Below are positions 888 through 17,318 of a DNA stretch of 20,000 bases, piece after piece. The stretch is taken from NCBI GenBank assembly GCA_049999805.1, contig JBNGIO010005882.1:182482-202481 (forward strand), read 5' to 3'. The number at the start of each line of letters is the position of its first letter. The first letter of the stretch is position 1. Under the pieces are notes generated by a model. It was given only the letters and a program-made list of their open reading frames with translations. It was not told the DNA's origin and ran no database searches. The position numbers and the translations under genes were made by a program. The stretch is from Folioceros fuciformis. Its lineage: Eukaryota.

Positions 888-3690
888 ATGGTGCGGAGGA
901 AGCCCATCAATCAAACGCTTATGAAGAGGCGGCCCGTCACTAGAGAAAACACCCGTTGTCGAACCAGTGTCCCATTAAGGAAGAGAGATGCAGCAGTCAT
1001 AGCTGGCTACTTCATGAAGTTATGTTGCAATCAAATGTGCATTCGACGTTTATCAAAAGAGACGTTCCAAGAACAACGGTATAGATTTTTACAGATGGGG
1101 AGACAAGAACAAGAAACATTATTGGAGTCACTGGTTCAAGTGGAGACATCTGGAAGATCAAAAAAGAAGGTTGTAACATACTTGAAGGGTGAGAGATCGG
1201 TGAGGTATTGTTTGAAGTCATTTCGGCGGGTGTATTGTATTGGCTTCAAACGATACGATGAGCTTTGTGCCAGGGTGCTAGCAGCTGCTCCCTGGGACAG
1301 CATGCAAGGGAACCCACCTATCTCATCTTCAGCGAGCAGCAATGCATTAGCGTGGATGGATACCACCTTCCTCAACATGGCTGAGCGCCTTCCGAATGTG
1401 GAGGTTTACAACTTGCCGGACATCTACACCAAGCTTGAGATTTCGAACCAATATGAGCAAAAGTGTGAGAGGTCCATGTGTGCCTTCATTTCGTACCAAT
1501 GGTTCTTATACATTTGGAAGCAGCACTTTAGCAAGGTAAAGATACCAAAGCCCAATCGCTTCTCCACTTGCTCCGTTTGTGCTGGATTGAAAGCCACGAT
1601 GAAGAATACATCAACTAAAGCAGAACAACGTATGTACTGTCATTTGCTGACTAAACCATAGGTCATTTCCTCATACCAATGGACACCGCACAGTATGGTC
1701 AGCGTGCGTACGTTTACACTAGAACTTTAGTGTTTGTCGATGACCTAGACATAGTTGGATTGCCTTCACCTTATATGCCTGTGTTTGTACTGCCGATGGG
1801 CTGGGAGCTGCCCCCATCAGGCCGGTGTATGATCAAGCACGCGGTGTCTATTTAGCTGTCTATATACATGAAGGGCCCCAACTTGCCAGAGCCCTACCTA
1901 TGTGTAGGCTTTCGTGCTTATAGTAGGGTCTTTTGATCAACCCATTCTGTGGGAATTATAGGTGGGTTTTGTGATCACACTTGGCCCGTCCCAGAATCCC
2001 CGAAAGTAGGGTTTAACTGTCGTGAAGCACTGCTCAACTGCCCCTGCCGTTAGATTGGTCCTTGACTAAATGAATGTCATCGATCAGTCAGACCCAACTC
2101 ACCTGATATTCGGTGTCGTGCATGCAGAGAAGTACCAGACTGCTCTTGACGCCCACTGACATCAGTTATGCGCAGAGCGTGAAAAGATGTCCATGCATCA
2201 AATCAAAAGCTATGTGTACCCGCGGAAGTACCTGATGATGGCAATCCATGGGATAGATCAAAAGAAGATGGAGATTCCACACTTCTTACGATGGTACAAT
2301 AACCTACATGAGGAAAGCCGCGTGGCAGTGCATGTAGTAGGGTGTATGGTGCACAACGACGTGTATAGTGCGAAGGCATACCAACATCTGGCAAACTTGT
2401 GGAATGATGCAAACTTGACTATATCAATCATCCTTGATGCTATTCACACATATGCAAGCGTATTGCTAAAGGTTCTATACTTACAACTGGACAACACATG
2501 TAGAGAGAATAAGAACCAACTGCTCTTCGCATACCAGAAAATACTCGTGGATATGAGAACGTTTGAAAAAGTCAAAGTTGGTTTTTTGCTTCTGGGCCAC
2601 ATGCATGACCAAATAGACCAAATGTTTTGCAAAACGCTTACACAACTACTCCACAGGTGAAGATCCTCACACAAGTCCTAGATTTCAGATCCTTCGTGTG
2701 GCCAGTTCAAAGGGGAGCGGGATGCAGTGCCCGCAGAACGACACGATGTTTGAATAATCTCTTGTTCCAACATCAATTCAAAATAACCCGCAAGTAGAGA
2801 GATGACCAGGGGCTCGTCAGAGTGATGCGAAGTAAGCAGTATTCGACGTCTCCCACTTGGGACACAGTAGAAGGCCTAGAGTTTTTGAAATTTGTCCTAA
2901 CGGCCACTATCTCTTCTGCACCACCCCTCTCTCTACGAGCAAGGGACAAGAAAGGAAGTGATACTAATATGCAACCAGTAGCCGGGGTTACCCACTTGAA
3001 GGATGGCCTTGCCGAGTTGCTTGCCTATATCTTGTTGGAGGATGGATTGTGGTGGGATGAGTTCTGAGAAACCCAAAATGCAATAGCAGAAATGGTAGAG
3101 ATCGAAATAGAGCTCCCTCTACAGGTTGCGTGGAAATGGTTTTAGAGGGATGCAGCCCAGGAGAGTGTTGAACCATTGCAAGTCCCTGATGAAACGTTTC
3201 TTCACGAGGCAGTGCTGAGGGAGCTCCCACAGAGGGACACGTACATAGGCAACTATCGGTAGCCCATACAACAACAACAGCAGATGGATCGCGTGAACGG
3301 TGATGTGTCTGAGATAAGGGAGGGAATGTTCATTGCAACCCCATGCTACACAGATACACACAATTGGCCTTTCTAGATAAGAAAAGTGGAGGAAGTGCAA
3401 ATGGAAGGTGCCCAGCCAAGCTTGCTCATCAATTGGTACCAAATTGAACATACAAATGCATATGAAGGGACGTATGTAGAAGAATTCATTATCAAAAGCA
3501 ATAGGCGACAGGACGGCGGTAGGGCAACCTAGCAAGGGCGGAAGGACAAACACCCCAAAAATGTTCAAGAGTTGTTTTTGGATGAGACTGTTATCCTCTA
3601 TTACGGTTTCAACCTCACGAAAAGAAAGCACCTTTATGCCACTAATAAAAAGGGGATTTGAGACAAACTCCATCAGTTGCGTGGGATAAT
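888..3690 (+). pseudogene. Sola-like (DUF7869-type) DDD transposase pseudogene, intron-containing
   Basis: N-terminal Cys motifs CCNQMC, YCLKSF..VYCIG..R and KIPKPNRFSTCSVC. Catalytic-core motifs I(H)GIDQKK..IP, LYLQLDNTCRENKN and FLLLGHMHDQIDQMF. Frameshifted downstream remnants (VLDFRSF, HQFKI, KQYSTSPTW, LYYGFNLTK). Premature stops are present. The 3' limit is approximate. Confidence 0.7.
1630..2127 (+). other. Predicted phase-1 spliceosomal intron in the transposase gene
   Basis: Donor C|GTATGT at 1630 and acceptor TGCAG| at 2127. Removal joins ORF 888 in frame with ORF 2187: KAEQQKYQTALDAH*HQLCAEREKM. Confidence 0.75.
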
Positions 3691-4358: not shown

Positions 4359-5549
4359 GATTTTCCGGATGAGGCATTTTCAGCAGACCTAGTGGGGAGG
4401 GAGAGGGCCAAACCAAATGCTAGGCTACCAAGAGGTGAAGGTGCAGCGCCGAATGAGAAGGGAAGAGGGGGATTCCGTAAACCCTCTTACCAAGAGGTAT
4501 CTGATTTTTTAGGCACGGGGAAGTTCTCGGTTGATCTCTCACGGCCGCAGTAGCGGCTGTTCCTTTACTTCACAAGACTAGTTGTTAAGCACAAGGGCAG
4601 GCTATATCGCACAAGAGCTGATGGGATGGAACGTTTGTGGGTCAACCTTGGCCAAGTGGAGCAAGTTATCAGCTCCTTGCATGAGGGAGAGGTTGGAGGC
4701 CATTATGCAGCCCATGTGACCTGTAGAAAAATTCTGGCAGCAGGGTGTTGGTGGCCAACAATGCATGCTAATGCTGGAGAGTTCATCAGGAGGTGTGATG
4801 CGTGCCAAAGGGTGGGGAAGCCTACCATGACCACACAATGGCCACTGGTCTCCATCCTAGCCCTAGCACCATTTGAGAAGTCGGGGATTGATTTTGTATG
4901 ACCAATTCAGCCCAACTCCAAGGGAAGGCAAAACCAATACATCTTGGTAGCAATCGACTACTGCACACGCATGGTAGAGGCTCAAGCTTTGCCTGTGGAC
5001 ATAGCCAATGTGGTGGCCAGATTTTTGTTTAAGCAGATCATCACAAGGTATGGGTGTCCGTTGGAGCTGGTGAGTGATAGGGGGACTCACTTCATCAATG
5101 AAGTGGTCGAGCACATGACTGAATATTTCAATATCAGTCATAGGAAGACCACCCCCTACAATCCTAAGGCCAATGGGCTCACGGAGAAGGCTAATGGGCT
5201 GTTGTGCAAGATTCTCAGCAAGCTAACCATCACATATGCTCATGACTGGGATAGGAAGCTTCATTCAGCCTTGTGGGTGTATAAGACTGCGGAGAAGGTT
5301 ACCACCTGGAAGACCCCTTATTACCTCACCTATGGACGCTCACCAATTACGCCCATTGAATTTGAGGTACTCACCTTGAGAATGCAAGAGAGCAATCGAT
5401 TGCTCGTGGAGGAGAGTCAGCTAGAGAGGCTGACCAGTTTTGTGCAGCATGATGAAGATAAAGAACGGGCCTTGGCTGTTTTCCTTGATGTCCAGGAGAG
5501 GAGGAAGAAATGGCATGACTCGAAGTTGCGTAAACAAGAGTATGTTGTG
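4359..5549 (+). mobile_element. Ty3/gypsy (non-chromovirus type) pol fragment: post-RNase H linker, H2C2 zinc finger and integrase core
   Basis: One frame runs from DFPDE (4359) through LHEG..GGHY...WWPTMH...CDACQR, GIDFV*P, VAIDYCT, LVSDRGTHF, TPYNPKANGLTEKAN and DWDRKL..ALWVY. Stops at 4551 and 4899. Truncated at both ends. Confidence 0.92.
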
Positions 5550-5734
5550 CCTAGGGTTTATTTAGGTAGTTAGTAGTTATATTAGTTGTAACCGCTTACG
5601 GTTGCAACTACTTACGGTTGCAAAAACTTATGGTTGCAACCGCCCAATCACCTAGCCTATTTAAAGGCTTGTACTTTACTCATTAATTGATTCCGTTGTT
5701 TTCCTTCTTATCTGAGAGCTATTGATTCTCATCA
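5550..5734 (+). repeat. 5' LTR of copia A, missing its first ~66 bp
   Basis: Aligns to 13080-13273 with 9 substitutions and one 9-bp indel by manual count. Ends TCATCA immediately before the PBS. Confidence 0.95.
5585..5665 (+). promoter_or_regulatory. LTR U3 repeats and TATA-like box
   Basis: CTTAYGGTTGCAA with a 16-bp period x3 (5595-5640), CCAAT at 5644 and TATTTAAA at 5658-5665. The repeats and TATTTAAA recur in the 3' LTR. Confidence 0.6.
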
Positions 5735-5746
5735 TGGTATCATAGC
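5735..5746 (+). other. Primer binding site (tRNA-iMet) of copia A
   Basis: TGGTATCATAGC, one mismatch from the canonical TGGTATCAGAGC, directly after the LTR-terminal CA. Confidence 0.92.
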
Positions 5747-5922
5747 ATCTTTGCTCTCTTGCGTATTCTTATGTTTCTTATATATGAGGAGATTGTTTAC
5801 AAGGCACTCTTAAATCTAGCATTTGTCAAAATGGAGTGCTATTGTCCTATATTCTCTATTTCACCAATCCTTTATCTCTTCCTTTAACATGCTTATATGT
5901 TCTAATCTTCTACAATTTCTCC

Positions 5923-6462
5923 ATGGACTTCAATTCTATTAGAAGGAGAAAACAGAAGGTTAAAACGAAAGAGAATCTCATTAAGCAACAAGCTATTGAG
6001 AGTGAAATAGAAGAAATCTCTTCATCTATAGCAAATTTCATTGTATCAATTTTATTTCCATAACCAAATCAAGGGAAGCTTATCAAGTTATCAAGATGTA
6101 ATTTGCTTGAATACTTCAGACCTGTCCATATTAAAGCTTTGGAATTAGCTCTTAATCATATTCCAAATTTAATAAATGGATTGATTTCTTCCTGTACTTC
6201 TATTTTGTTAAATAAAAATAGAATTCAAATTCCATCTCTTCATGATTTTTATGATCAATTTTCATCTCTCAAAATTCAGGTCTCTAATCTACAAACTGAA
6301 TTATTTGATTTGAAAACAAAATTTTCTTTGATTAATACTAATCAAGAATTAGAGAGTAGGCCATCATCTCCTGAAAACAGCCTAATGGAGGAATTCTATA
6401 TGTGCAACAAAATTGAACATAAGCCTTACCGCAAGAGCTTTGTCCTTTGAGGACGATTAGCT
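5923..6462 (+). pseudogene. Extra ORF or N-terminal Gag extension of copia A (~180 codons, basic N-terminus and coiled-coil-like segment)
   Basis: ATG at 5923 (CCATGG). ORFs 5836, 6103 and 6463 share one frame, broken only by TAA 6061-6063 and TGA 6448-6450. Confidence 0.6.
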
Positions 6463-9400
6463 ATGGCCGGAGTGATTGAAGAAGAATTTGAAGCTACCCC
6501 AAACTCACCTTTGGGTAATGATAATGTTCATCCTCCTACACATTATCATTTTGGTGATGGTTTCAAAGAGAAAGGTAGATTCAACGGGAAAGATTATGAT
6601 ATTTGGGCATTACGTATGCGAGGAGCATTGAGACAAAGAGCATTATGGGGCATTATTGATGGATCCATAACAAGACCAAGGTCTGATGATGAATGTGAAC
6701 TTCAGATTTCCTGGGATACCAGGGATGAGAAGACACAAGATTTGTTAATAAGTGGACTCTCTCAACAAATGGTCAGGTATGTTGCACATGCAAAAACATC
6801 TCATGAAATGTGGCCTCACCTTGCTCAATTATATTCATCACAAGATGTAATGAGCATTGTGGCAGCTTCTCGTAACTTCCATAATTTATCCATGAAGGAA
6901 TCCGACACTATTGAACATCATATTAATGCTTTTAGACAAGCATGCTCCCAAGTTGAATCTGCAACTGGTGTACCTATATCTGAGATGGATGCTTATGTAA
7001 CCCTTCTATCTTCATTGCCTCCCTCCTATCGTCCATTCATCACTACTCAAAACGCAGTTATTCGTAATTCACGGAGAACTGCAGATGATGGGACAAAGGG
7101 TTTTGACATTTTCTGAATTGATCGGAGCACTTCTACAGGAGGAGGCAAGTGGGCGCCATTCTCACTCCAGGCCTAATAAACAACAAGTAATGTACTTGCA
7201 GAGAGGCAGAGGAAGAGGACGAGGCAGAGGCCGAGGTTTTTCTTCCCAACGTCCTCCATATTCTTCGCCGAGTACCAACATTGGAGAGAGTTCTTCATCC
7301 ACACCTTCAAAGGGTAAAAAGAAGAGCGGCATTATATGCAATTGGTGCAGGATTCCTAATCATACAGAAAAGGATTGTCGCAAAAAGAAGAATGGTGAAC
7401 CTCGCAAGGAGGCTTCACAAGGAATTAATGTAGCTTCCAAAAAGCAATCTTCATCAACTCCAACAGTGCTCACTGTATGTTTGGCATCACCCAAACCTGC
7501 TAATACCTCATGGTATTTAGACAGTTGAGCAACATCACATATATTTTACAACAAAAGTTATTTTCAGTCATACTCCCCAACCACAAGACATCAATCTGTC
7601 CTCTTGGGAGATGATCACAACCTACCTATTGAAGGCACTGGTTCTGTTGTACTAACATGTGATTCAAGACAAGTCCTCCACCTCTACCAAGTTCTCCATG
7701 TTTCATCAATGTGCAAGAATTTATTATCAGTTGCAAGTATTTGTCAAACCCATTCCATGCAGGTGACCCTTTTTACAAATAGTTGCTTTCTCTCTCATGT
7801 AGGTGATAGCAATCATATCATTTGTAGTGGTACTTTAGAAGATGGCCTTTATAAATTGTCTGTTCTAGTAGGAGGTCAACAATCTGCTCATGTCGCCAGT
7901 TCTTCGCCTCGAAGTCCCTCTCCCACAATGTTATGGCATTGTTGTCTTGGTCATCCAAATAGTCAAAAATTAGTACAAATGTCTAAGGCAGGAAATTTAT
8001 ATCGCACACCCTGCCTCTCTCATATTCAACACCTCTCATGGTGTGAGACTTGTGTCATTACCAAAAGACATCAAGCCCCCTTTAATTACATCTCCCCACA
8101 GAGGGCGAAATGTCCTCTAGGGCTTGTTCATACTGATATTTGCGGCCCTATCTCTACACCTTCTTTCAGTGGTAGTAGATATTTTATGACCTTCATTGAC
8201 GACTACTCTTGGTTTACCCTTACCTATATCTTGAGTCATAAAGGAGATGTTTATTGTTACTTCCAAGACTATATGGTATGGGCTGAGAGGTTAACCGAAA
8301 AGAAACTCAAAACCTTACGTTCTGATAATGGTGGCGAGTTCACTTCCAATCAATTTACGGATTTTTGTCGCCTTCGCGGTATTGCTCAACAACTTACTGT
8401 TGTTTATACTCCGCAACAAAATGGCGTAGCTAAAAATAAGAATCTATGTCTTCAAGAGATTACTGGCTGCCTGTTAAACCAAGCAAATTTACCTAAGGTA
8501 TACTAGGCTGAAGCACTCCTCACAGCCACATATCTCATGAATCGACTGCCCACTTCAGCAGTCCAAGATATGACACCTTATGAAGCCTTTATAGGCAGAA
8601 AGCCCTCCATAGAACACCTCCGCATTTTTGGATCTCCGGCATATTTATTTGTCCCCAAGGCATTAAGAAGGAAGTTCGACCCAAAGGCCGTAAAATATAC
8701 CTTTATTGGTTATTCGGAAGGAATCAAGGGTTATAAATTGTTTGATCCTTCTACTAAGAGGCTTCTCTATGCTCGCAGCGTCACTTTTCGTGAACATTCC
8801 CTATTTTCATCTTCAGTGGGAGATGTTTTGCCTCCTTACCTTTCATCTAAAGATATAAAATCTAAATGTTCTTCCTTTGATGCTAGTGACTATATTGTGG
8901 ATTTTCCTGATCCTGCTCTCTGACTTCCCTTCGATGGACCTGTCATGTAGGAGGAGGAATTAGGACCTAAACTGCGTCCTGACACACCCACAACCGACAC
9001 CGACACACCGGAGGAGGAGGAGCAATTTTCACATTCATCTGATCCCCTTGAGGCCATTTCGGAAAATGCAGTACCTTTTGTTTAACAAGACTGATCAGTT
9101 GGAAGCTGATGATGTTGAAGAAATGGACCCTATAGAACATGAAGATGAACCAGTTTCTGTGGAAGATACACCTGCACCAAGGTACAACCTTAGATCACGT
9201 CCACTCATCTCCGGCCCTGCTAGTTGGAAAGAACCTCCTTTGGGATATCTTGCTATTTTTCTTGATTCTAAATCTCCTGAGTCTCTTTATAATCAAGCTG
9301 TGTATGCAGCCACTATAGACTTAGAGGAGCCCCTTACCCTAAAACAAGCCTTCTCCTCTCCCTCCAAACATCTATGGAAGGCAGCCGTAGACTCATAGTA

Positions 9401-10904
9401 TAATTCCCTTATTAGTAATTCTACATGGAAATTAGTTGAACCTCCTAAGGGTAGAAAAATAGTAACTAGCAAATGGGTATTCAAGATAAAGTGAAAAGGA
9501 GATGGATCGGTGGAAAGGTATAAAGCACGTCTAGTTGCTAGAGGTTTTACTCAAGTCCCTGGACTAGACTACATACCTTGGGCCACTTATGCTCCTGTAG
9601 CTAAGTTTGCTACTCTTCGTATGATCTTCGCTATATGCGCCCAGTATGATCTTGAACTTCATATGATGGATGTGAAAACAGCATATTTGTATGGGCGCTT
9701 GAAAGAAGAAATATATATGAAGCAACCTGAGGGTTATGAGGTAAAAGGCAAGGAGCATTTAGTATGTAAACTTATCAAGGGTATATATGGACTCAAGCAA
9801 TCCGGCAAAAATTGGAACTTGACTATCCATGTACAACTCTTGAACAAGGGATTTAAGCAAAGTAAAGGTGATGCTTGCTTATATAGTTACCTTAAGGGAA
9901 ATAATATATTTTACCTTTTACTATACGTCGATGACATTTTTATGGCAACAAACTCTCTCATTCTCCTGGCTGAGATAAAAGCATGGCTTCAGACATTATA
10001 TGAGATGACCGACCTAGGAGAAATGAATTATGCACTTGGAGTAAATATTATCCGTGACAGGAGTAATAAAAAGTTGAGCATAGTTCAAACCAAATACATA
10101 AAGGAGAGTTTAGCAAAGTTTGGAATGGAAGATGCAAAGCCTGCACCTACACCCTTTGCTAGTGGCATCAGGCTTTCCTCCGATATGAGTCCTGAGAGTG
10201 CTCAAGAGAAAATGGAAATGGCATCTGTCCCATATCGACATGCTATTGGCACTCTTATATATTTATGCAATTTCACTAGACCTGATCTTTCTTTTGAAGT
10301 CAGCTCCTGCTCACAGTTTTTGGAGAACCCTGGACACCAACATTGGATGTCAGTTAAGCATATTTTTTGATACCTTAAAGGGACTATGCATACAGGGCTG
10401 ACATTTAAGCATACACCAGCAATCAAAACATTAACACTCACGGCATATGCCGATGCTGATTATGCTGGTGATCCTGATACTCGAAAATCCGTATCAGGTT
10501 ATGTTTTACTTCTTGGAGGAGCCCCAATATCATGGTCGAGTAAGAAATAGCCTACCATTGTCTTATCTGGTACTGAATCTGAATATAGAGTACTAACATC
10601 TGTTTCCAATGATATAGTATGGTCTAGGCTAGTTTTGAGTGAACTCAATCACCCTCAACATAACCCAATATCTCTTTTTAGTGATAGTCAAGGCGCCATA
10701 GCACTTGCTAGAAACCCTGTTTTTCATTCCACAACCAAACATATAGCTGTTGAGTATCACTATATCATAGAGAAATTGGAAGATAAGACCATAGATATCA
10801 GTTATATACCAACCCAAAACAACCCAGCTGATCTATTAACTAAATCATTAGGGAGAGATTTGCATTTAAAACACATGAAAATGTTAGGCATTCAAGAGGT
10901 TTAA
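6463..10904 (+). pseudogene. Copia A gag-pol polyprotein, disrupted
   Basis: Gag (FNGKDYDIW, LLSSLPPSY), zinc knuckle CNWCRIPNHTEKDC, protease WYLDS*ATSH, pre-integrase LWHCCLGH, integrase VHTDICGP/LRSDNGGEF/TPQQNGVA, RT YKARLVARGF/MDVKTAYL/LYVDD and RNase H YADADYA/SDSQGAI/TKHIAVEYH/ADLLTK. Several stops and frameshifts. Confidence 0.96.
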
Positions 10905-11108
10905 GTCAGCTAGCTAGCATGTGTAATTGTATTTGCTACAGTCCACACATCTTATCTAGCATACATAGTTCCTCTCCTAACTCTATGTAGTCTTCACTAT
11001 ACTCCTTATCCTCTCTCTCTAATGCCCAGAAGGATCCTACAATACACTCCATGGGTTATAAAGTGAAAATGATGAAAAGATAGTACTTAAGTTGTTAGGT
11101 TACTTACT

Positions 11109-12097
11109 CTACAAGTGTTTGGTGTGTCCTTCGTATTTTTCACATGGGGAAGCACCCAACCACATCATTTTTATTCCTCTCTTTTCATATACATACTCCA
11201 TGGGAACTTCAAGGTCATCCTTTCCTCCAGGAAGAACCAAGTAGGTTGCCTTACATAAATTACCAGCTGGCAGGTAGGAACTAGGAATTTTCTTCTTTGC
11301 ACTTGCTCTCTCTTGAGTAGGTCGTAGAGGTAGGGCAAATCTCATATGACTTGTGCCCACATTTTTATCTACATTTGCAAAATAGAGGCAAATTTTAGGA
11401 AAAAGTTAGTTTAGTTTACCTGGTTTTTTGGTATCATCTTTCCCACTTACTTCTTTGCTCTCCTGTTGTTGCCGCTATAACATCCTCTATTTGGTTATCT
11501 GCACAAGGATGTGACCTCCAGCTTGGGCTACCATCACAAATAGCCTGTTGGGGGGTCTCTTCTTGTTTTATGGAGTCTTTTGACTCTTTTGAATCTTCAT
11601 TTATTTTGAAGTCATCATATTCAGCCTTAGTTGGCGGTGTTGGCTTCATCGGATTATCTACATCCACATTTATTAGCATTTTGTGCAATCAAAACTTTTA
11701 TACAATTTATTTTGCAATTCATTGACTTATCAGTCACTTTGACTTCTCTCACAACGACCTTGGATTTTTTCATCAGCGTTTGCACCACCAGGACGTCATC
11801 ATGCCCACCGGCTATGTCTTCACTCGTCACAACAAGTTGACGGTACCTTGCGAGAAATTCAGCACTGAAGTTAGGATCATCTGTACCTTTCTCAGTATCT
11901 GGTATTGGTGCTGCCGCCTCCCGGAACCACACGATGTTTGCACAGTTTGCCAACTTCCTTTCCTCTTTTCTTCTGGCAAGTATTTTTCTCCTGGCCATGC
12001 GAATTGCTTGCTTAATTTTATTAGCACCCATTTTCTGGCCTCATGGAGCTAGGGGGGCATGGAGCCTCCACTCGGCGTAAACTGCAGCATCAGCCAT
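11109..12097 (-). pseudogene. Antisense accessory gene of unknown function in the pol-to-3'LTR region of copia A
   Basis: Minus-strand ATG at 12097 (AAGATGGC) is in frame with ORF 12031-11654 across one TGA. It is followed by overlapping or adjacent minus-strand ORFs 11688-11434 and 11360-11109, which are rich in K/E/D residues. Confidence 0.5.
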
Positions 12098-12148
12098 CTT
12101 TAGGTGTATTATACAGACCAGGTCTTTAGGTGTATTATATAGACCGGG
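12097..12148. repeat. 26-bp tandem duplication with a minus-strand TATA-like motif
   Basis: TCTTTAGGTGTATTATACAGACCAGG (12097-12122) and TCTTTAGGTGTATTATATAGACCGGG (12123-12148). Confidence 0.9.
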
Positions 12149-13001
12149 AATTAAATATTAATATCAGCTATTTTCAGCAATTTATCAGAAATTGACTTCA
12201 ACAAAAAAAAAAAATCATCAGAATTTTCAGGCTGCAACACGCGCACCTGGAAATCGGAAATTTTTAGGTGGCAACAAGTGCGTGTTTTTCTGGCTGGAAC
12301 ACCCCGCAAATCTTTTGGCTGGATGGTGGCACACCAGGCTCGCTAGATTTCCGACAAAAATCTACAGGCTGGATCGCTGATTGTAGACAGGCTGGATCGC
12401 GACCAGGGCACGCACTGGGCTCACCGGATTGTAGGCTGGAACGCGCTTACTGATGCGCGATTTCTGGTCTGGATTGCTATAGATCTGGGCAGAATTTTCA
12501 GGTTGATCTCAGACAATATGAATCGCGGCATGGCCGCGCGGCTGGTAGTCTTGATTGCGGGCTGAATGGCTGGCAAAATTGGTGGCCGCCTGATGCTCGG
12601 CAGATCAGGGCGCACGGTAAGCTGGATGGATCGCGTTGCGGCGCTCCGGATTGTAGCATAAAGCGGGAGGGAGGGAGAAGGCGGTTTCTCCCCATTCGCC
12701 TCCCCGTCCACTAATTGCGGGGGGTGGGCGCGTGCCCACAACGGGCGTCTGCGACGGGGCCGTCTGGGCCAACCGGTCTGTACCGGCTCCCGCGATGGTA
12801 CCGACTATATGCAAAAAAAAAAGGGGAAAGAAATACTAACCTATTGAGCCTGCCAAAACTCAAACCCACGACCTCCAACCCCTATATGAATGTACTAACC
12901 ACTACACCAATGCATTTTGGTTATAAATAGATGGGTTTTGCCTGTAGTAAACTTTGTATGAGCATAAGTACAAAGGCATTAGACTTCACCCCTATATTCA
13001 T

Positions 13002-13013
13002 GGCGAGTGGGAG
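13002..13013 (+). other. Polypurine tract of copia A
   Basis: GGCGAGTGGGAG directly precedes the LTR start TGATGA. Confidence 0.75.
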
Positions 13014-13273
13014 TGATGAAATGGGTCTAGATTAGGGCACTATTCATTAGGGCCTCGTAACTTTAAACATTATTATCTACCTAGGGTTTATTTAGGTAGT
13101 TAGTGGTTATATTAGTTATATTAGTTGTAACCGCTTACGGTTGCAACTACTCACAGTTGCAACAACTTATGGTTGCAACTGCCCAACCACCTATCCTATT
13201 TAAAGGCTTGTACTTTACTCATTAATTGATTCCGTTGTTTTCCTTCCTATGTGAGAGCTATTGATTCTCATCA
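13014..13273 (+). repeat. 3' LTR of copia A (260 bp)
   Basis: Begins TGATGA and ends TCATCA (perfect 6-bp inverted termini), follows the PPT, and 13080-13273 matches the 5' LTR. Confidence 0.92.
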
Positions 13274-16016
13274 ATACTTCACTTCCACACATGTTGGGTC
13301 TTCGCATGAAACACTGGATTCTTTGCCAATTGAATAGCACTCTGGCTATCACAATGCAACACTGGCAGCTCAACCTTGATCCTCAAATCTCTCACTAAAC
13401 GAGCAAGCCACATTGCTTCCCTGCACGCCTTAGTCGCTGCAACATACTCGGCCTCTGTGGTAGATAGCGTTATGCACAATTGCAAACCAGATCGCCATGA
13501 GACTGCCTCTCCAGTGCACATGAAGACATAACCTGATGTGGACCTCCTTTTGTCCATATCCCCTGCTTTATCAGCATCCGTATATCCCACAACAGATGCA
13601 TCTTCACTACCAAAACATAAGCACAAAGCTTTCGTACCATTTAAGTACCTCATAACTCCTTTCACTGCCTCCGAATGCTTCCTGCCAGGGTTTGACATAA
13701 ACCTGCTAACCACTCCCACTGCAAAGGCAATGTCAAGACGTGTAGCAATCATTGCATACATCAAACTCCCTACAGCTGATGAGTATGGAATTTTCTCCAT
13801 TTCAGCTTTGTCCTCCGTAAAGCTTGGGCAGTCCTTGCTCGACAGTTTTACATATGAAGGCAACGGAGTATTCAATACCTTCCCTTTCTCCATATTGAAA
13901 CGTTGAAGCACCTTGTTAATGTATTCGGTATGAGACAAGTACAACAAACACTTTTGTCTGTCTCGATGAATATGCATGCCAAGAATATGGCTTGCCTCTC
14001 CCAAGTCTGTTATGTCAAAACGACCATTCAACTTTGACTTCAACGCTGAAATCTCATCACTATTAGTCCCAACAATTAGCTCATCTACATAGAGGACCAG
14101 AATGAGCAAGCTTCCATCCTTAGCTTGCTTCATATAAAGGCAATGATCCTCATCGCTATGTTTATAGCCTTGAGAAAGCATAAATGAGTGGAACTTGAAA
14201 TACCACTCCCTAGGTGCCTGCTTCAAACCATAAAGGCTTTTCTTTAACCTGCACACCATATTCTCTTTGCCCTTCTCAATGAAACCCTCTCGTTGTTGCA
14301 TGTATACCTCTTCCTAGAGATCACCATGCAAAAATGCCGACTTCACATCCATCTGGACAAGTTCCATGTCGTTCCTCGCAACCAGACCAAGAACTTATCG
14401 CAAGGTGGTCATTTTGACAATCGGTGAGAAAATCTCATCAAAGTCAATACCTTGCTGTTGCTTAAAACCCTTAGCAACCAATCGCACCTTATACTTGGGT
14501 TTGCCATAATGGGGTATGTCCTTCATCTTATACACCCATTTGCATGGCAACGCCTTCTTGCCCTATGCAACCGAACCAACTCCCAAGTTTGGTTCTTATG
14601 GAGCAAATCCATATGCGATTGCATTGCCTTCTCCCACTTGTCCTTGTCAGTCATTGACATGGCCTCTTGATAACAAGAGGGCTCCCCACAATCCATCAGC
14701 ATGACATAATCAAGAAATGTAACATACCTGTCAGGAGGACGTGAGATCCTTCTTGATCTACGAAGAATAGGCGCCTCGACTTGAGCTGGATGCACTCTCT
14801 CCTCTTGTACAAGTGAAGGAACTTGTTCTTGCACATCACGACGTTCAACCTGCGCGGGACGGTCAAGTCCATCTTCTTGGAAGACCACACGTCGCACCTC
14901 CACTTTTGGAGTAGGCTTCTTGTGCATCTTGGTCTCATTGAAGAACACGTCATTGCTGCGAACCATCCTCTTGGCCTCTGGATCCCACAGACGGTATCCC
15001 ATCTCACCAGATTCACCATAGCCAAGAAAAATACATTTTCTTGACTTAGGAGCCAACTTGTCACGAAACTCCTTCGGAACATGGTAATATGACTTGCAGC
15101 CAAACACTCGTAGATGCTTGTAAGACGACTTCTTCCCAGACCACATCTCCTCTAGAACCTGCTCATCCACAGCCCTATTAGGAGATCTGTTAATAAGATG
15201 CACCGTAGTAACCACTGCTTCTCCCCAAAATCCATTAGGCAATCCAAAGTTTGACAACAAACTACGCATCCTCTCCTGGATGTTCCTGTTCATCCGTTTG
15301 GCCACACAATTCTGGGGAGGAGTATACGGCGCAATCAATTCTCTCTTGATTCCCTTGGAATCACAGAATGACTAGAAAGCCTTTGAGACATACTCTCCCC
15401 CATTGTCTGTCCTCGAACACTTCAGTCGAAGGCCAGACTGATTCTCCACAAGGGTGACGAATTTCTGAAACACTGTCAGAAAATCATCCTTTTTCCTCAA
15501 AGGATAAACCCACACCTTGCGTGAGAAATCATCAATGAAAGTGACAAAATAAGATGCACCGCCTAACGATACAGTGGGCATAGGTCCACAAACGTCACTG
15601 TGGACCAACTCAAGAGGTTTACTTTTGTGTTTACCTCTTGCTCCATGTAGTGACTTTGTTTGTTTCCCATACAAACAGTGCTCACGCTCGGAGAAATCGG
15701 AGAAGTAAAAAATAGGGACATAACCAAAATGAGATAACATGTTCATTCCTTTTTGAGACATATGTCCTAACCGACTATGCCACAAGGAAACACTTGGCTA
15801 TTTCGTTACACAAATCACATTATTCTTGACAGTGGTTACCTGAAGTGAGTACAAAGTGCCACACTTCGATCCACGAGCTAACATAAGAGAACCCTTGGAG
15901 ATCTTCCAAGAACGATCTCCAAACCAACAATGGTAGCCAATGTCATCCAACTGCCCTCATCATGCTTTTGGCCAACTTCAGAACATGCCTAATATCCTTC
16001 AGTACGAATGAAGATC
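13274..16016 (-). mobile_element. Ty1/copia fragment B (Tnt1/Tork-like): end of protease region, integrase, RT, RNase H
   Basis: LKDIRHV, WHSRLGHMS, VHSDVCGP, RTDNGGEY, GYRLWDP, LKKSLYGLKQAPR, LYVD, YTDAD, DSQSAIQLAKNPVFH. Cut at HVEVKY by LTR A and at its 5' side by LTR C. Confidence 0.94.
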
Positions 16017-16842: not shown

Positions 16843-17318
16843 TTCTTCCGCTGCTCCAGGCAAGAGAGAGCGCCTAGCACATGCGCAGTGGACTTGACTG
16901 GATATGAAGCGTTGCGTTACAGGCGGTGCCTCTTCGCAGCATGACATCTTCTGCGTGCTCATAGGCTCTAGTGTAGCGCTGCGTCAGTTCATAGGCAAGG
17001 GACACGGCAGTTAGGTCAGGAAACTCTAACGTCATTACTTTTAGGGTTTAGATAGGTACTTACATGACGTTTCGTTAAGTGGCCAGGAAGTAACAGGATA
17101 AGTTTGATGATGAAGTTAGCGAGAGAGGGCTAGGATAAGTCCTTATCGTTTCCCCTTCCTACTACTCCACCCCCCCCCTCCCCACCAGACCATCCCTGTA
17201 CTTCTTGTCAAAATCTTGTGATCTGAGCATGTAAAATTAACATTGTGATGAGCAGGACGTTCAGTTTTACCTGGATCATCGTAGAGCCATAGCTTAATAC
17301 GTACCCTGGTGAAATTGC

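Follow-up and report, generated by a model that had tools for sequence, protein, structure and literature searches.

Antisense open reading frames (ORFs) located between pol and the 3′ long terminal repeat (LTR), designated aORF-3R, have been described in maize Grande (gene23), rice RIRE2, Silene Retand and the bean pvRetro13 ORF2 group, all of which belong to Ty3/gypsy (PMC7264820). Among plant LTR retrotransposons, those of the gypsy Tat/Retand group commonly carry antisense extra genes of unknown function. An antisense ORF2 has been reported from 15 gypsy families, whereas the extra ORF of two copia families was read as env-like and contrasted with the opposite-strand ORF2 (PMC4093653). In Ty1/copia, extra ORFs of at least 250 codons were recorded in 582 elements of 45 groups, with the orientation being stated, in the available part of that survey, only for the sense ORF of SIRE (PMC6317226). 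Among the papers listed in a literature search, no description of a copia case of an antisense 3′ ORF was seen, and the reviews consulted name none, within a record in which the survey's orientations are known only for SIRE. Here we describe a 20,000-nucleotide (nt) stretch of Folioceros fuciformis DNA (contig JBNGIO010005882.1; hereafter the window), which the Pfam matches and the ORF list identify as a nest of retroelements, and in which one Ty1/copia element carries an extra region of about 2.1 kb behind pol. The reading that we favour, tentatively and short of conviction, is that this copia family carries a decayed antisense accessory gene, analogous but unrelated to those of the gypsy elements Grande, RIRE2 and Retand. 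An initial annotation of the window had suggested such a gene and had held that antisense extra ORFs are best known from gypsy, with which the published examples found, all Ty3/gypsy, agree (PMC7264820, PMC4093653, PMC11963269).

The host element was assigned to Ty1/copia by its Pfam domains, all of which lie on the plus strand in the Ty1/copia order of gag, integrase and RVT_2, with gag (PF14223) at 6451-7116, Pol_BBD, gag_pre-integrs and rve at 7529-8506, and RVT_2 (PF07727) at 9495-10370. The gag-pol region (6451-10904, plus strand) is broken into at least seven ORF pieces according to the ORF list and Pfam, and the final pol piece spans 10551-10904 and ends with a stop codon at 10902-10904. 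A polypurine-tract-like sequence, GGCGAGTGGGAG, lies on the plus strand at 13002-13013 with a TG next to it at 13014, and about 2.1 kb separates the pol stop from this polypurine tract (PPT), whichever start of the 3′ LTR holds. The extra region of this size, which the initial annotation had deduced from the end of pol at 10904 and the distant PPT and 3′ LTR, was borne out by the ORF list and the LTR comparison. In copia lineages without extra ORFs, the polyprotein nearly fills the internal region, as far as the excerpt of the survey goes (PMC6317226).

Opposite to gag-pol and between pol and the 3′ LTR, i.e. at the position and on the strand of an aORF-3R, a chain of ORF pieces, now broken, was found on the minus strand. 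An ATG at 12097-12095 opens an upstream in-frame extension of 18 codons (12041-12097), which is closed by a TGA at 12043-12041, and the frame of this ATG continues as piece A (11654-12040; 128 codons), with an internal ATG at 12031-12029. Piece B (11434-11688; 84 codons) is acidic and Lys-rich, and piece C (11109-11405; 98 codons) ends with a TAG stop at 11111-11109. The three pieces occupy three different frames and tile about 1 kb of the minus strand, and the chain that had been annotated earlier from ATG 12097 down to about 11109 was recovered in them, with the TGA coming soon after the ATG. Pieces A and B overlap by 35 nt, and a single frameshift inside this overlap would fuse A with B; splicing from A to B was rejected, since neither a good acceptor nor a phase-compatible donor was found near the boundary and a frameshift in the 35-nt overlap is simpler. 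B and C do not overlap and are probably joined by a candidate intron of 82 nt (11369-11450, minus strand), as its predicted splice signals suggest, with the donor GAA/GTAAGT (G at 11450) and the acceptor TGTAG/AT (G at 11369). The interval is AT-rich, its phases fit, with one base of the split codon in B and two in C, and sister contigs show a 1-nt length difference at 11424, inside it. The antisense ATG is immediately preceded by a tandem duplication of 26 nt (12097-12148; 92%), which carries TATA-like motifs on the minus strand and is a candidate promoter. A spacer (10905-11108) with a CpG observed/expected ratio (o/e) of 0.00 lies between the two convergent stops, and one contig of the DNA run X2 skips 10892-11086, joining 10891 at the pol end to 11087 at the end of piece C.

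The lesions of the putative antisense gene are the in-frame stop, the A/B frameshift and, unless the interval is spliced, a B/C stop, and the gene is dead in the present copy. They amount to one to three disruptions per ~1 kb of antisense gene versus at least six per 4.45 kb of gag-pol; pol is broken to the same degree in the present copy, and the similar disruption density fits decay of both the antisense gene and gag-pol since the copy was made.

The ORF content of 11100-12100 was compared, strand by strand, with that of 2000 dinucleotide-preserving shuffles. On the minus strand, the longest ORF of 128 codons was matched in 13 of the 2000 shuffles, and neither the summed length of the top three ORFs (310 of 333 possible codons) nor a third ORF of at least 84 codons was matched in any (0/2000 each). 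The minus strand of this interval is A- and G-rich and hence stop-rich, and its 63 stops, against a shuffle mean of 67.6, are ordinary in total, which indicates that stops are not fewer but are kept out of one frame per segment. When both strands were tested together on the 2.1 kb, a 128-codon ORF appeared in 271 of 1000 shuffles, which is not significant because the T-rich plus strand yields long ORFs easily, and the strand-specific tests were then used instead. The region had been picked for its ORFs, and about 40 window-strand choices were corrected for. Supportively, the top-three ORF sum per 1 kb (297-310) lies at the lower edge of the Pfam-confirmed gag/pol strands (~300-480) and above the strands opposite gag/pol (~120-250). 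The ORF tiling of the minus strand is thus beyond chance on that strand.

Codon usage, which resembles that of the pol genes, was scored with a model whose training set was 11 gag/pol ORF pieces from the window, and stop-free shuffle ORFs of at least 80 codons served as the null. The scores per codon were -4.009, -3.967 and -3.939 for A, B and C, respectively, and -3.95 to -4.05 for four re-scored pol pieces, and the scores of B and C were reached by 2.7% and 1.0% of the null ORFs. In base composition, the minus strand of 11109-12040 is 60% purine, compared with 50% for gag-pol on its own strand.

Contigs from runs X1, X2, X3 and X4 were compared with 5750-13300 at a likeness of at least 80%; such contigs give neither copy numbers nor alignments for the ratio of nonsynonymous to synonymous substitution (Ka/Ks). 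The matched contigs, 599 in X1, 718 in X2 and 770 in X3, are mostly below 99% likeness to the window, and 30 of 30 bins of the segment were covered in each of these three runs; two DNA runs of one sample contain 60% and 44% of the segment's sampled words. At 11580, 11623 and 11640, none of the two to three contigs available in X1 or in X2 has the window letter, at 12265 the window letter is absent in 2 of 2 X1 and 5 of 5 X2 contigs, and X2 record 14, which covers 11700-12239, has 16 other letters and 29 gap letters. In piece C, deletions of 2 nt and 7 nt occur with equal depth and contig count in each run, consistent with one sister contig, and sum to 9, the single point in the contigs that speaks for conservation. 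The segment is therefore present in other copies and is not a private insertion, a possibility that the initial annotation had raised: differing DNA contigs of the same organism lie on it, and one of them bridges 10891 to 11087. Terminal inverted repeats (TIRs) or a target site duplication (TSD) of the segment's own had also been considered, and the repeat scans found neither TIRs nor a flanking duplication around 11109-12097. Inside the window, blastn and tblastn found no second copy of the 3′ region. The contig depth over 11798-12805 is below that of pol, a measure that cannot rank parts and has no copy-number meaning, and run X4, guessed to be RNA, gave two contigs of less than 90% likeness on pol parts only and is uninformative on expression. 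No RNA run appeared among the runs listed as containing the segment.

In the reading that we favour, the extra 3′ region would be a heritable part of a Ty1/copia family, and the ~1 kb from 12097 to 11109 on the minus strand would be a decayed protein-coding gene converging on pol. The gene may have been driven by a promoter of its own at ~12100-12150, where the sequence is AT-rich and bears TATA-like motifs, and probably contained one short intron at 11369-11450. An antisense intron would not be spliced from the element's genomic RNA and would be copied at every transposition; it is plausible because it survives reverse transcription of the sense genomic RNA. The product would be an orphan protein of ~200-330 residues with an Arg/Lys-rich N-terminal helix, and its likeliest role, by analogy with Grande, RIRE2 and Retand, would be that of a nuclear, nucleic-acid-binding accessory factor for the element's own cycle; the antisense transcript may also feed copy control based on double-stranded RNA. 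For a nuclear or anti-silencing role, which the initial annotation had offered as an example, the one hint comes from the confidently modelled Arg/Lys-rich N-terminal helix of piece A (residues 3-34), for which AlphaFold2 gave values of the predicted local distance difference test (pLDDT) of 71, 88 and 66 in blocks of 10 residues, with the rest below 50. A more specific proposal is a doubtful one: that a lineage of Ty1/copia elements, in a group of plants that is poorly sampled, has an antisense accessory gene of its own, which is spliced, bears a promoter, encodes an orphan basic protein and arose independently of those of gypsy Grande, RIRE2 and Retand.

Several observations weigh against the favoured reading. 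No relative of the antisense ORF pieces was found across Pfam, the PDB, the representative proteins and the Atlas. Specifically, none of the three pieces matched a Pfam family, even with E values as high as 1 admitted, in keeping with the earlier description of the ORF chain as one without a recognisable domain, and neither Transposase_28 (PF04195), i.e. TRP28, nor an SMC domain was found by Pfam in the antisense pieces; the PDB sequence search, with the same limit on E, gave 0 matches for each piece; piece A shared words with 143 candidates of similar length and with 1028 longer ones, none of which passed; and the Atlas gave no usable match for A or C. Among 1.84 billion representative proteins, piece C had one match, to a bacterial repeat protein over 45 residues, which was judged spurious. 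Language-model recognition was low (1494 and 1933, where 91 of 100 known-family proteins reach 2300), and the AlphaFold2 single-sequence models were poor (mean pLDDT 44.6 and 48.5). After correction for the ~40 window-strand choices, the ORF result is still significant but weaker, and the codon score of piece A is not unusual, being reached by 17.5% of the null ORFs. Furthermore, some sister contigs skip 176 nt in A (11790 to 11967) and 293 nt across B (11357 to 11651), lengths that are not multiples of three and would break the frames. The blank searches are weak evidence, because even the reverse transcriptase (RT) piece (9495-10370), with 5270 relatives in the protein collection, finds none above 50% identity. 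Judging from these matches, the copia lineage or its host group is poorly sampled in the protein collection, and a faster-evolving accessory protein would be invisible in such searches. The RT matches listed came from seed plants, a charophyte alga, a water flea and metagenome contigs. The earlier suggestion that this copia lineage may encode an antisense accessory protein stands in part: the extra region is real, the minus-strand reading is favoured statistically and the codon usage is compatible, whereas the frame-breaking skips of some sister contigs count against it.

About 800 nt of the 2.1 kb (12100-13001) are not part of the putative antisense gene and fall into an AT-rich portion, a block rich in CpG and a stretch with tRNA-box-like motifs. 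The GC- and CpG-rich block (12221-12810), with an A12 run at its left edge (12203-12214, plus strand) and an A10 run at its right edge (12813-12822, plus strand; T10 on the minus strand), has a GC content of 0.58 (up to 0.61) and a CpG o/e of 1.00, the highest values of the whole 20-kb window, and the rest of the element has a CpG o/e of 0.00-0.47. The block contains short scattered motif repeats and has no ORF support, with no Pfam match to its 127-codon minus-strand ORF and no plasmid match by blastn; an internal duplication of the block was not supported. Its undepleted CpG suggests that the block has a history different from that of the element and probably younger, which may reflect either a secondary acquisition or protection from methylation. 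The differences of the X3 contigs from the window show a large excess of C>T (283) and G>A (232), so that this run looks bisulfite-converted and could reveal the methylation state of the CpG-rich block and of the candidate antisense promoter. In the adjacent stretch at 12823-12925 on the minus strand, a box-A-like motif TGGTGTAGTGG (12909-12899) and a box-B-like motif GGGTTTGAGTT (12867-12857), 42 nt apart and followed by T10, were picked out by eye from their likeness to the box A and box B consensus. For 12823-12925, ARAGORN reported no tRNA, Rfam gave no tRNA match at E up to 10 and no target duplication was seen; a short tRNA-derived short interspersed nuclear element is possible from the motifs, though unconfirmed by these two programs. 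Both the CpG-rich block and the tRNA-box-like stretch look like separate additions.

The coding signature would be fitted equally well by a captured gene, i.e. a passenger fragment, derived from a host gene or from some other mobile element, that was taken up once, by transduction, template switch or an old nested insertion, and was then copied with the subfamily without having a role. Capture at the DNA level would also accommodate a retained intron-like interval, the sister contigs with frame-breaking skips speak for it, and the CpG-rich block and box-A/B-like stretch next door show foreign pieces gathering in the 3′ region; transduced ORFs are themselves described, in the available part of the source, as occurring in one or a few copies (PMC7264820). 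We nevertheless consider such a passenger unlikely, as the repeat scans showed neither TIRs nor a flanking duplication around 11109-12097, the pol-adjacent part is covered by several differing contigs, and no similar cellular or transposon protein was found for any of the three pieces (none in Pfam, with E values up to 1 allowed, and none in the other searches), the last point being weak where the best RT match is itself 50% identical. Less probable again is that the interval between pol and the PPT is a hypervariable untranslated region of the sort found in many plant LTR retrotransposons, in which the ORFs are a by-product of skewed composition. The longest ORF is indeed unexceptional when the strands are pooled (271/1000), the pieces lack homologues, are poorly recognised by the language model and were not folded with confidence, the region harbours short scattered repeats and the 26-nt duplication, and the sister contigs differ from one another in structure. 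Skewed composition is, however, already preserved in the shuffles, and three tiling ORFs on the stop-frequent, purine-rich strand arose in 0 of 2000 of them, while the codon scores of B and C fall in the top 1-3% of the null ORFs.

A sense extra ORF on the plus strand at 11399-12052 was also weighed, with 216 codons in one frame, a single stop and a hydrophobic translation like that of the SIRE env-like ORFs. The two adjacent 108-codon ORFs share one frame, a pair of this length was found in only 83 of 2000 shuffles, and the codon score of the first ORF is high, being reached by 0.6% of the null ORFs; the second half scores poorly (reached by 86%), and the pair statistic was picked after the fact. 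Taken alone, the plus strand is ordinary for a T-rich strand, with its longest ORF matched in 842 of 2000 shuffles and its top-three sum in 412 of 2000, and any T-rich strand gives a hydrophobic translation. This sense ORF is therefore a very improbable account of the region, and the decayed antisense accessory gene stays the explanation that we prefer.

The ends of the host element are those of an LTR retrotransposon, with two direct LTRs, a primer-binding site (PBS) and the PPT. The direct repeats at 5571-5734 and 13110-13273 are 95% identical over 164 nt, and their likeness fades but extends back to ~5536 in the 5′ LTR and ~13066 in the 3′ LTR. On the plus strand, the part of the 5′ LTR recognisable in the alignment (5543-5734) either falls short of the 3′ copy in length or has been cut at the 5′ end, and the 3′ LTR (13014-13273) starts either at 13014, with the TG after the PPT, or at ~13066-13080, and ends with ...CTCATCA at 13273. 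Regarding the earlier placement of the PPT at 13002 and of the LTR start at 13014, the purine tract at 13002-13013 and the TG at 13014 were confirmed, but the LTR start is not fixable from the present copy, because the 5′ LTR has no counterpart of 13014-13065. Right behind the 5′ LTR, the sequence TGGTATCATAGC is found at 5735, and the PBS was assigned to TGGTATCATAGCATC at 5735-5749 (plus strand), which is of the initiator-Met tRNA type. A sister contig connects the LTR end at 13273 to 5750 via TGGTATTAAAGCATC.

No 5-bp TSD was found, the flanks being GAGTA versus ATACT (5538-5543 / 13274-13278 area). The left flank (4902-5573, plus strand) is another integrase ORF, the right flank (13279-15797, minus strand) belongs to a second copia and encodes RT, an SH3-like domain and integrase, and a third copia begins at 17313. 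Because a TSD is lacking and the flanks come from different elements in different orientations, the present copia copy is probably truncated or recombined rather than a clean insertion, through 5′ LTR truncation or inter-copy recombination. Upstream of gag, the ORF pieces 5788-6063 and 6064-6450 share the frame of the gag piece 6451-7116, and the AT-rich interval 5788-6450 (GC 0.31, CpG o/e 0.18) would be either a long N-terminal extension of gag with two in-frame stops or part of an unusually long leader of ~700-800 nt. Elsewhere in the window, an ORF at 2160-2660 (plus strand) with a strong DUF7869 match (E 3e-31) lies upstream of a gypsy-like integrase and belongs to another mobile or repeat unit, and at 590-812 a 21-nt tandem motif, ACCCTATGCCCACAAAACGCT, was found together with a duplicate of its surroundings at a spacing of 138 nt.

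If the more specific proposal of an independent, spliced antisense gene in copia is true, antisense accessory genes would be a recurrent solution in both LTR-retrotransposon superfamilies, and the antisense intron would be a built-in mark of expression from DNA copies, not from genomic RNA. If copia had independently come by such a gene, for an unrelated protein, this would speak for selection of the layout itself, i.e. an antisense gene behind pol with its own promoter, and the role of these antisense genes could then be studied in a second system, of smaller size. The present evidence comes from one dead copy, and its support is statistical, not functional.

Compared with known systems, the region resembles several and coincides with none of the named families. 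The hypervariable 3′ untranslated regions of plant LTR retrotransposons, reportedly described by Macas et al. in 2009 as spawning tandem repeats, are alike in the 26-nt duplication, the scattered 15-19-nt motifs and the structural differences from copy to copy, whereas no real tandem arrays are present here (four short arrays of 2.3-3.0 copies) and one strand is coding-like. Transduced gene fragments are alike in carrying foreign coding sequence inside an LTR element, but they are described as limited to one or a few copies, whereas here no donor or homologue is detectable and several differing contigs carry the segment. With SIRE (Sirevirus/Maximus), the present element shares its Ty1/copia membership and, behind pol and ahead of the 3′ LTR, an additional coding region, which is heterogeneous and without conserved domains in the available description (PMC6317226); the orientation is opposite and the LTRs are short here, and the sense-strand ORFs are not beyond chance. 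In Retand, the region between POL and the 3′ LTR carries tandem arrays and the TRP28 domain occurs in 97% of clusters, as far as the excerpt goes (PMC11963269). A long pol-to-LTR region with repeats is thus common to both, while Transposase_28 was not found here, and the host, with its integrase before RVT_2, is not a non-chromovirus Ty3/gypsy element as in the Retand/Tat TRP28 family (PMC11963269, PMC6317226). The closest correspondence is with the aORF-3R of gypsy, which occupies the same position from pol to the 3′ LTR in the orientation opposite to gag-pol and likewise has no informative similarity to cellular proteins. For the Grande antisense gene, its own upstream promoter has been shown, in the part of the source available (PMC7264820), whereas a promoter is only proposed here. 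The host also differs, being Ty1/copia with short LTRs (260 nt or less) where the named examples are Ty3/gypsy, and the ORF has at most ~330 codons, compared with 211-939 in aORF-3R. Collectively, the present case works like an aORF-3R but belongs to no named family.

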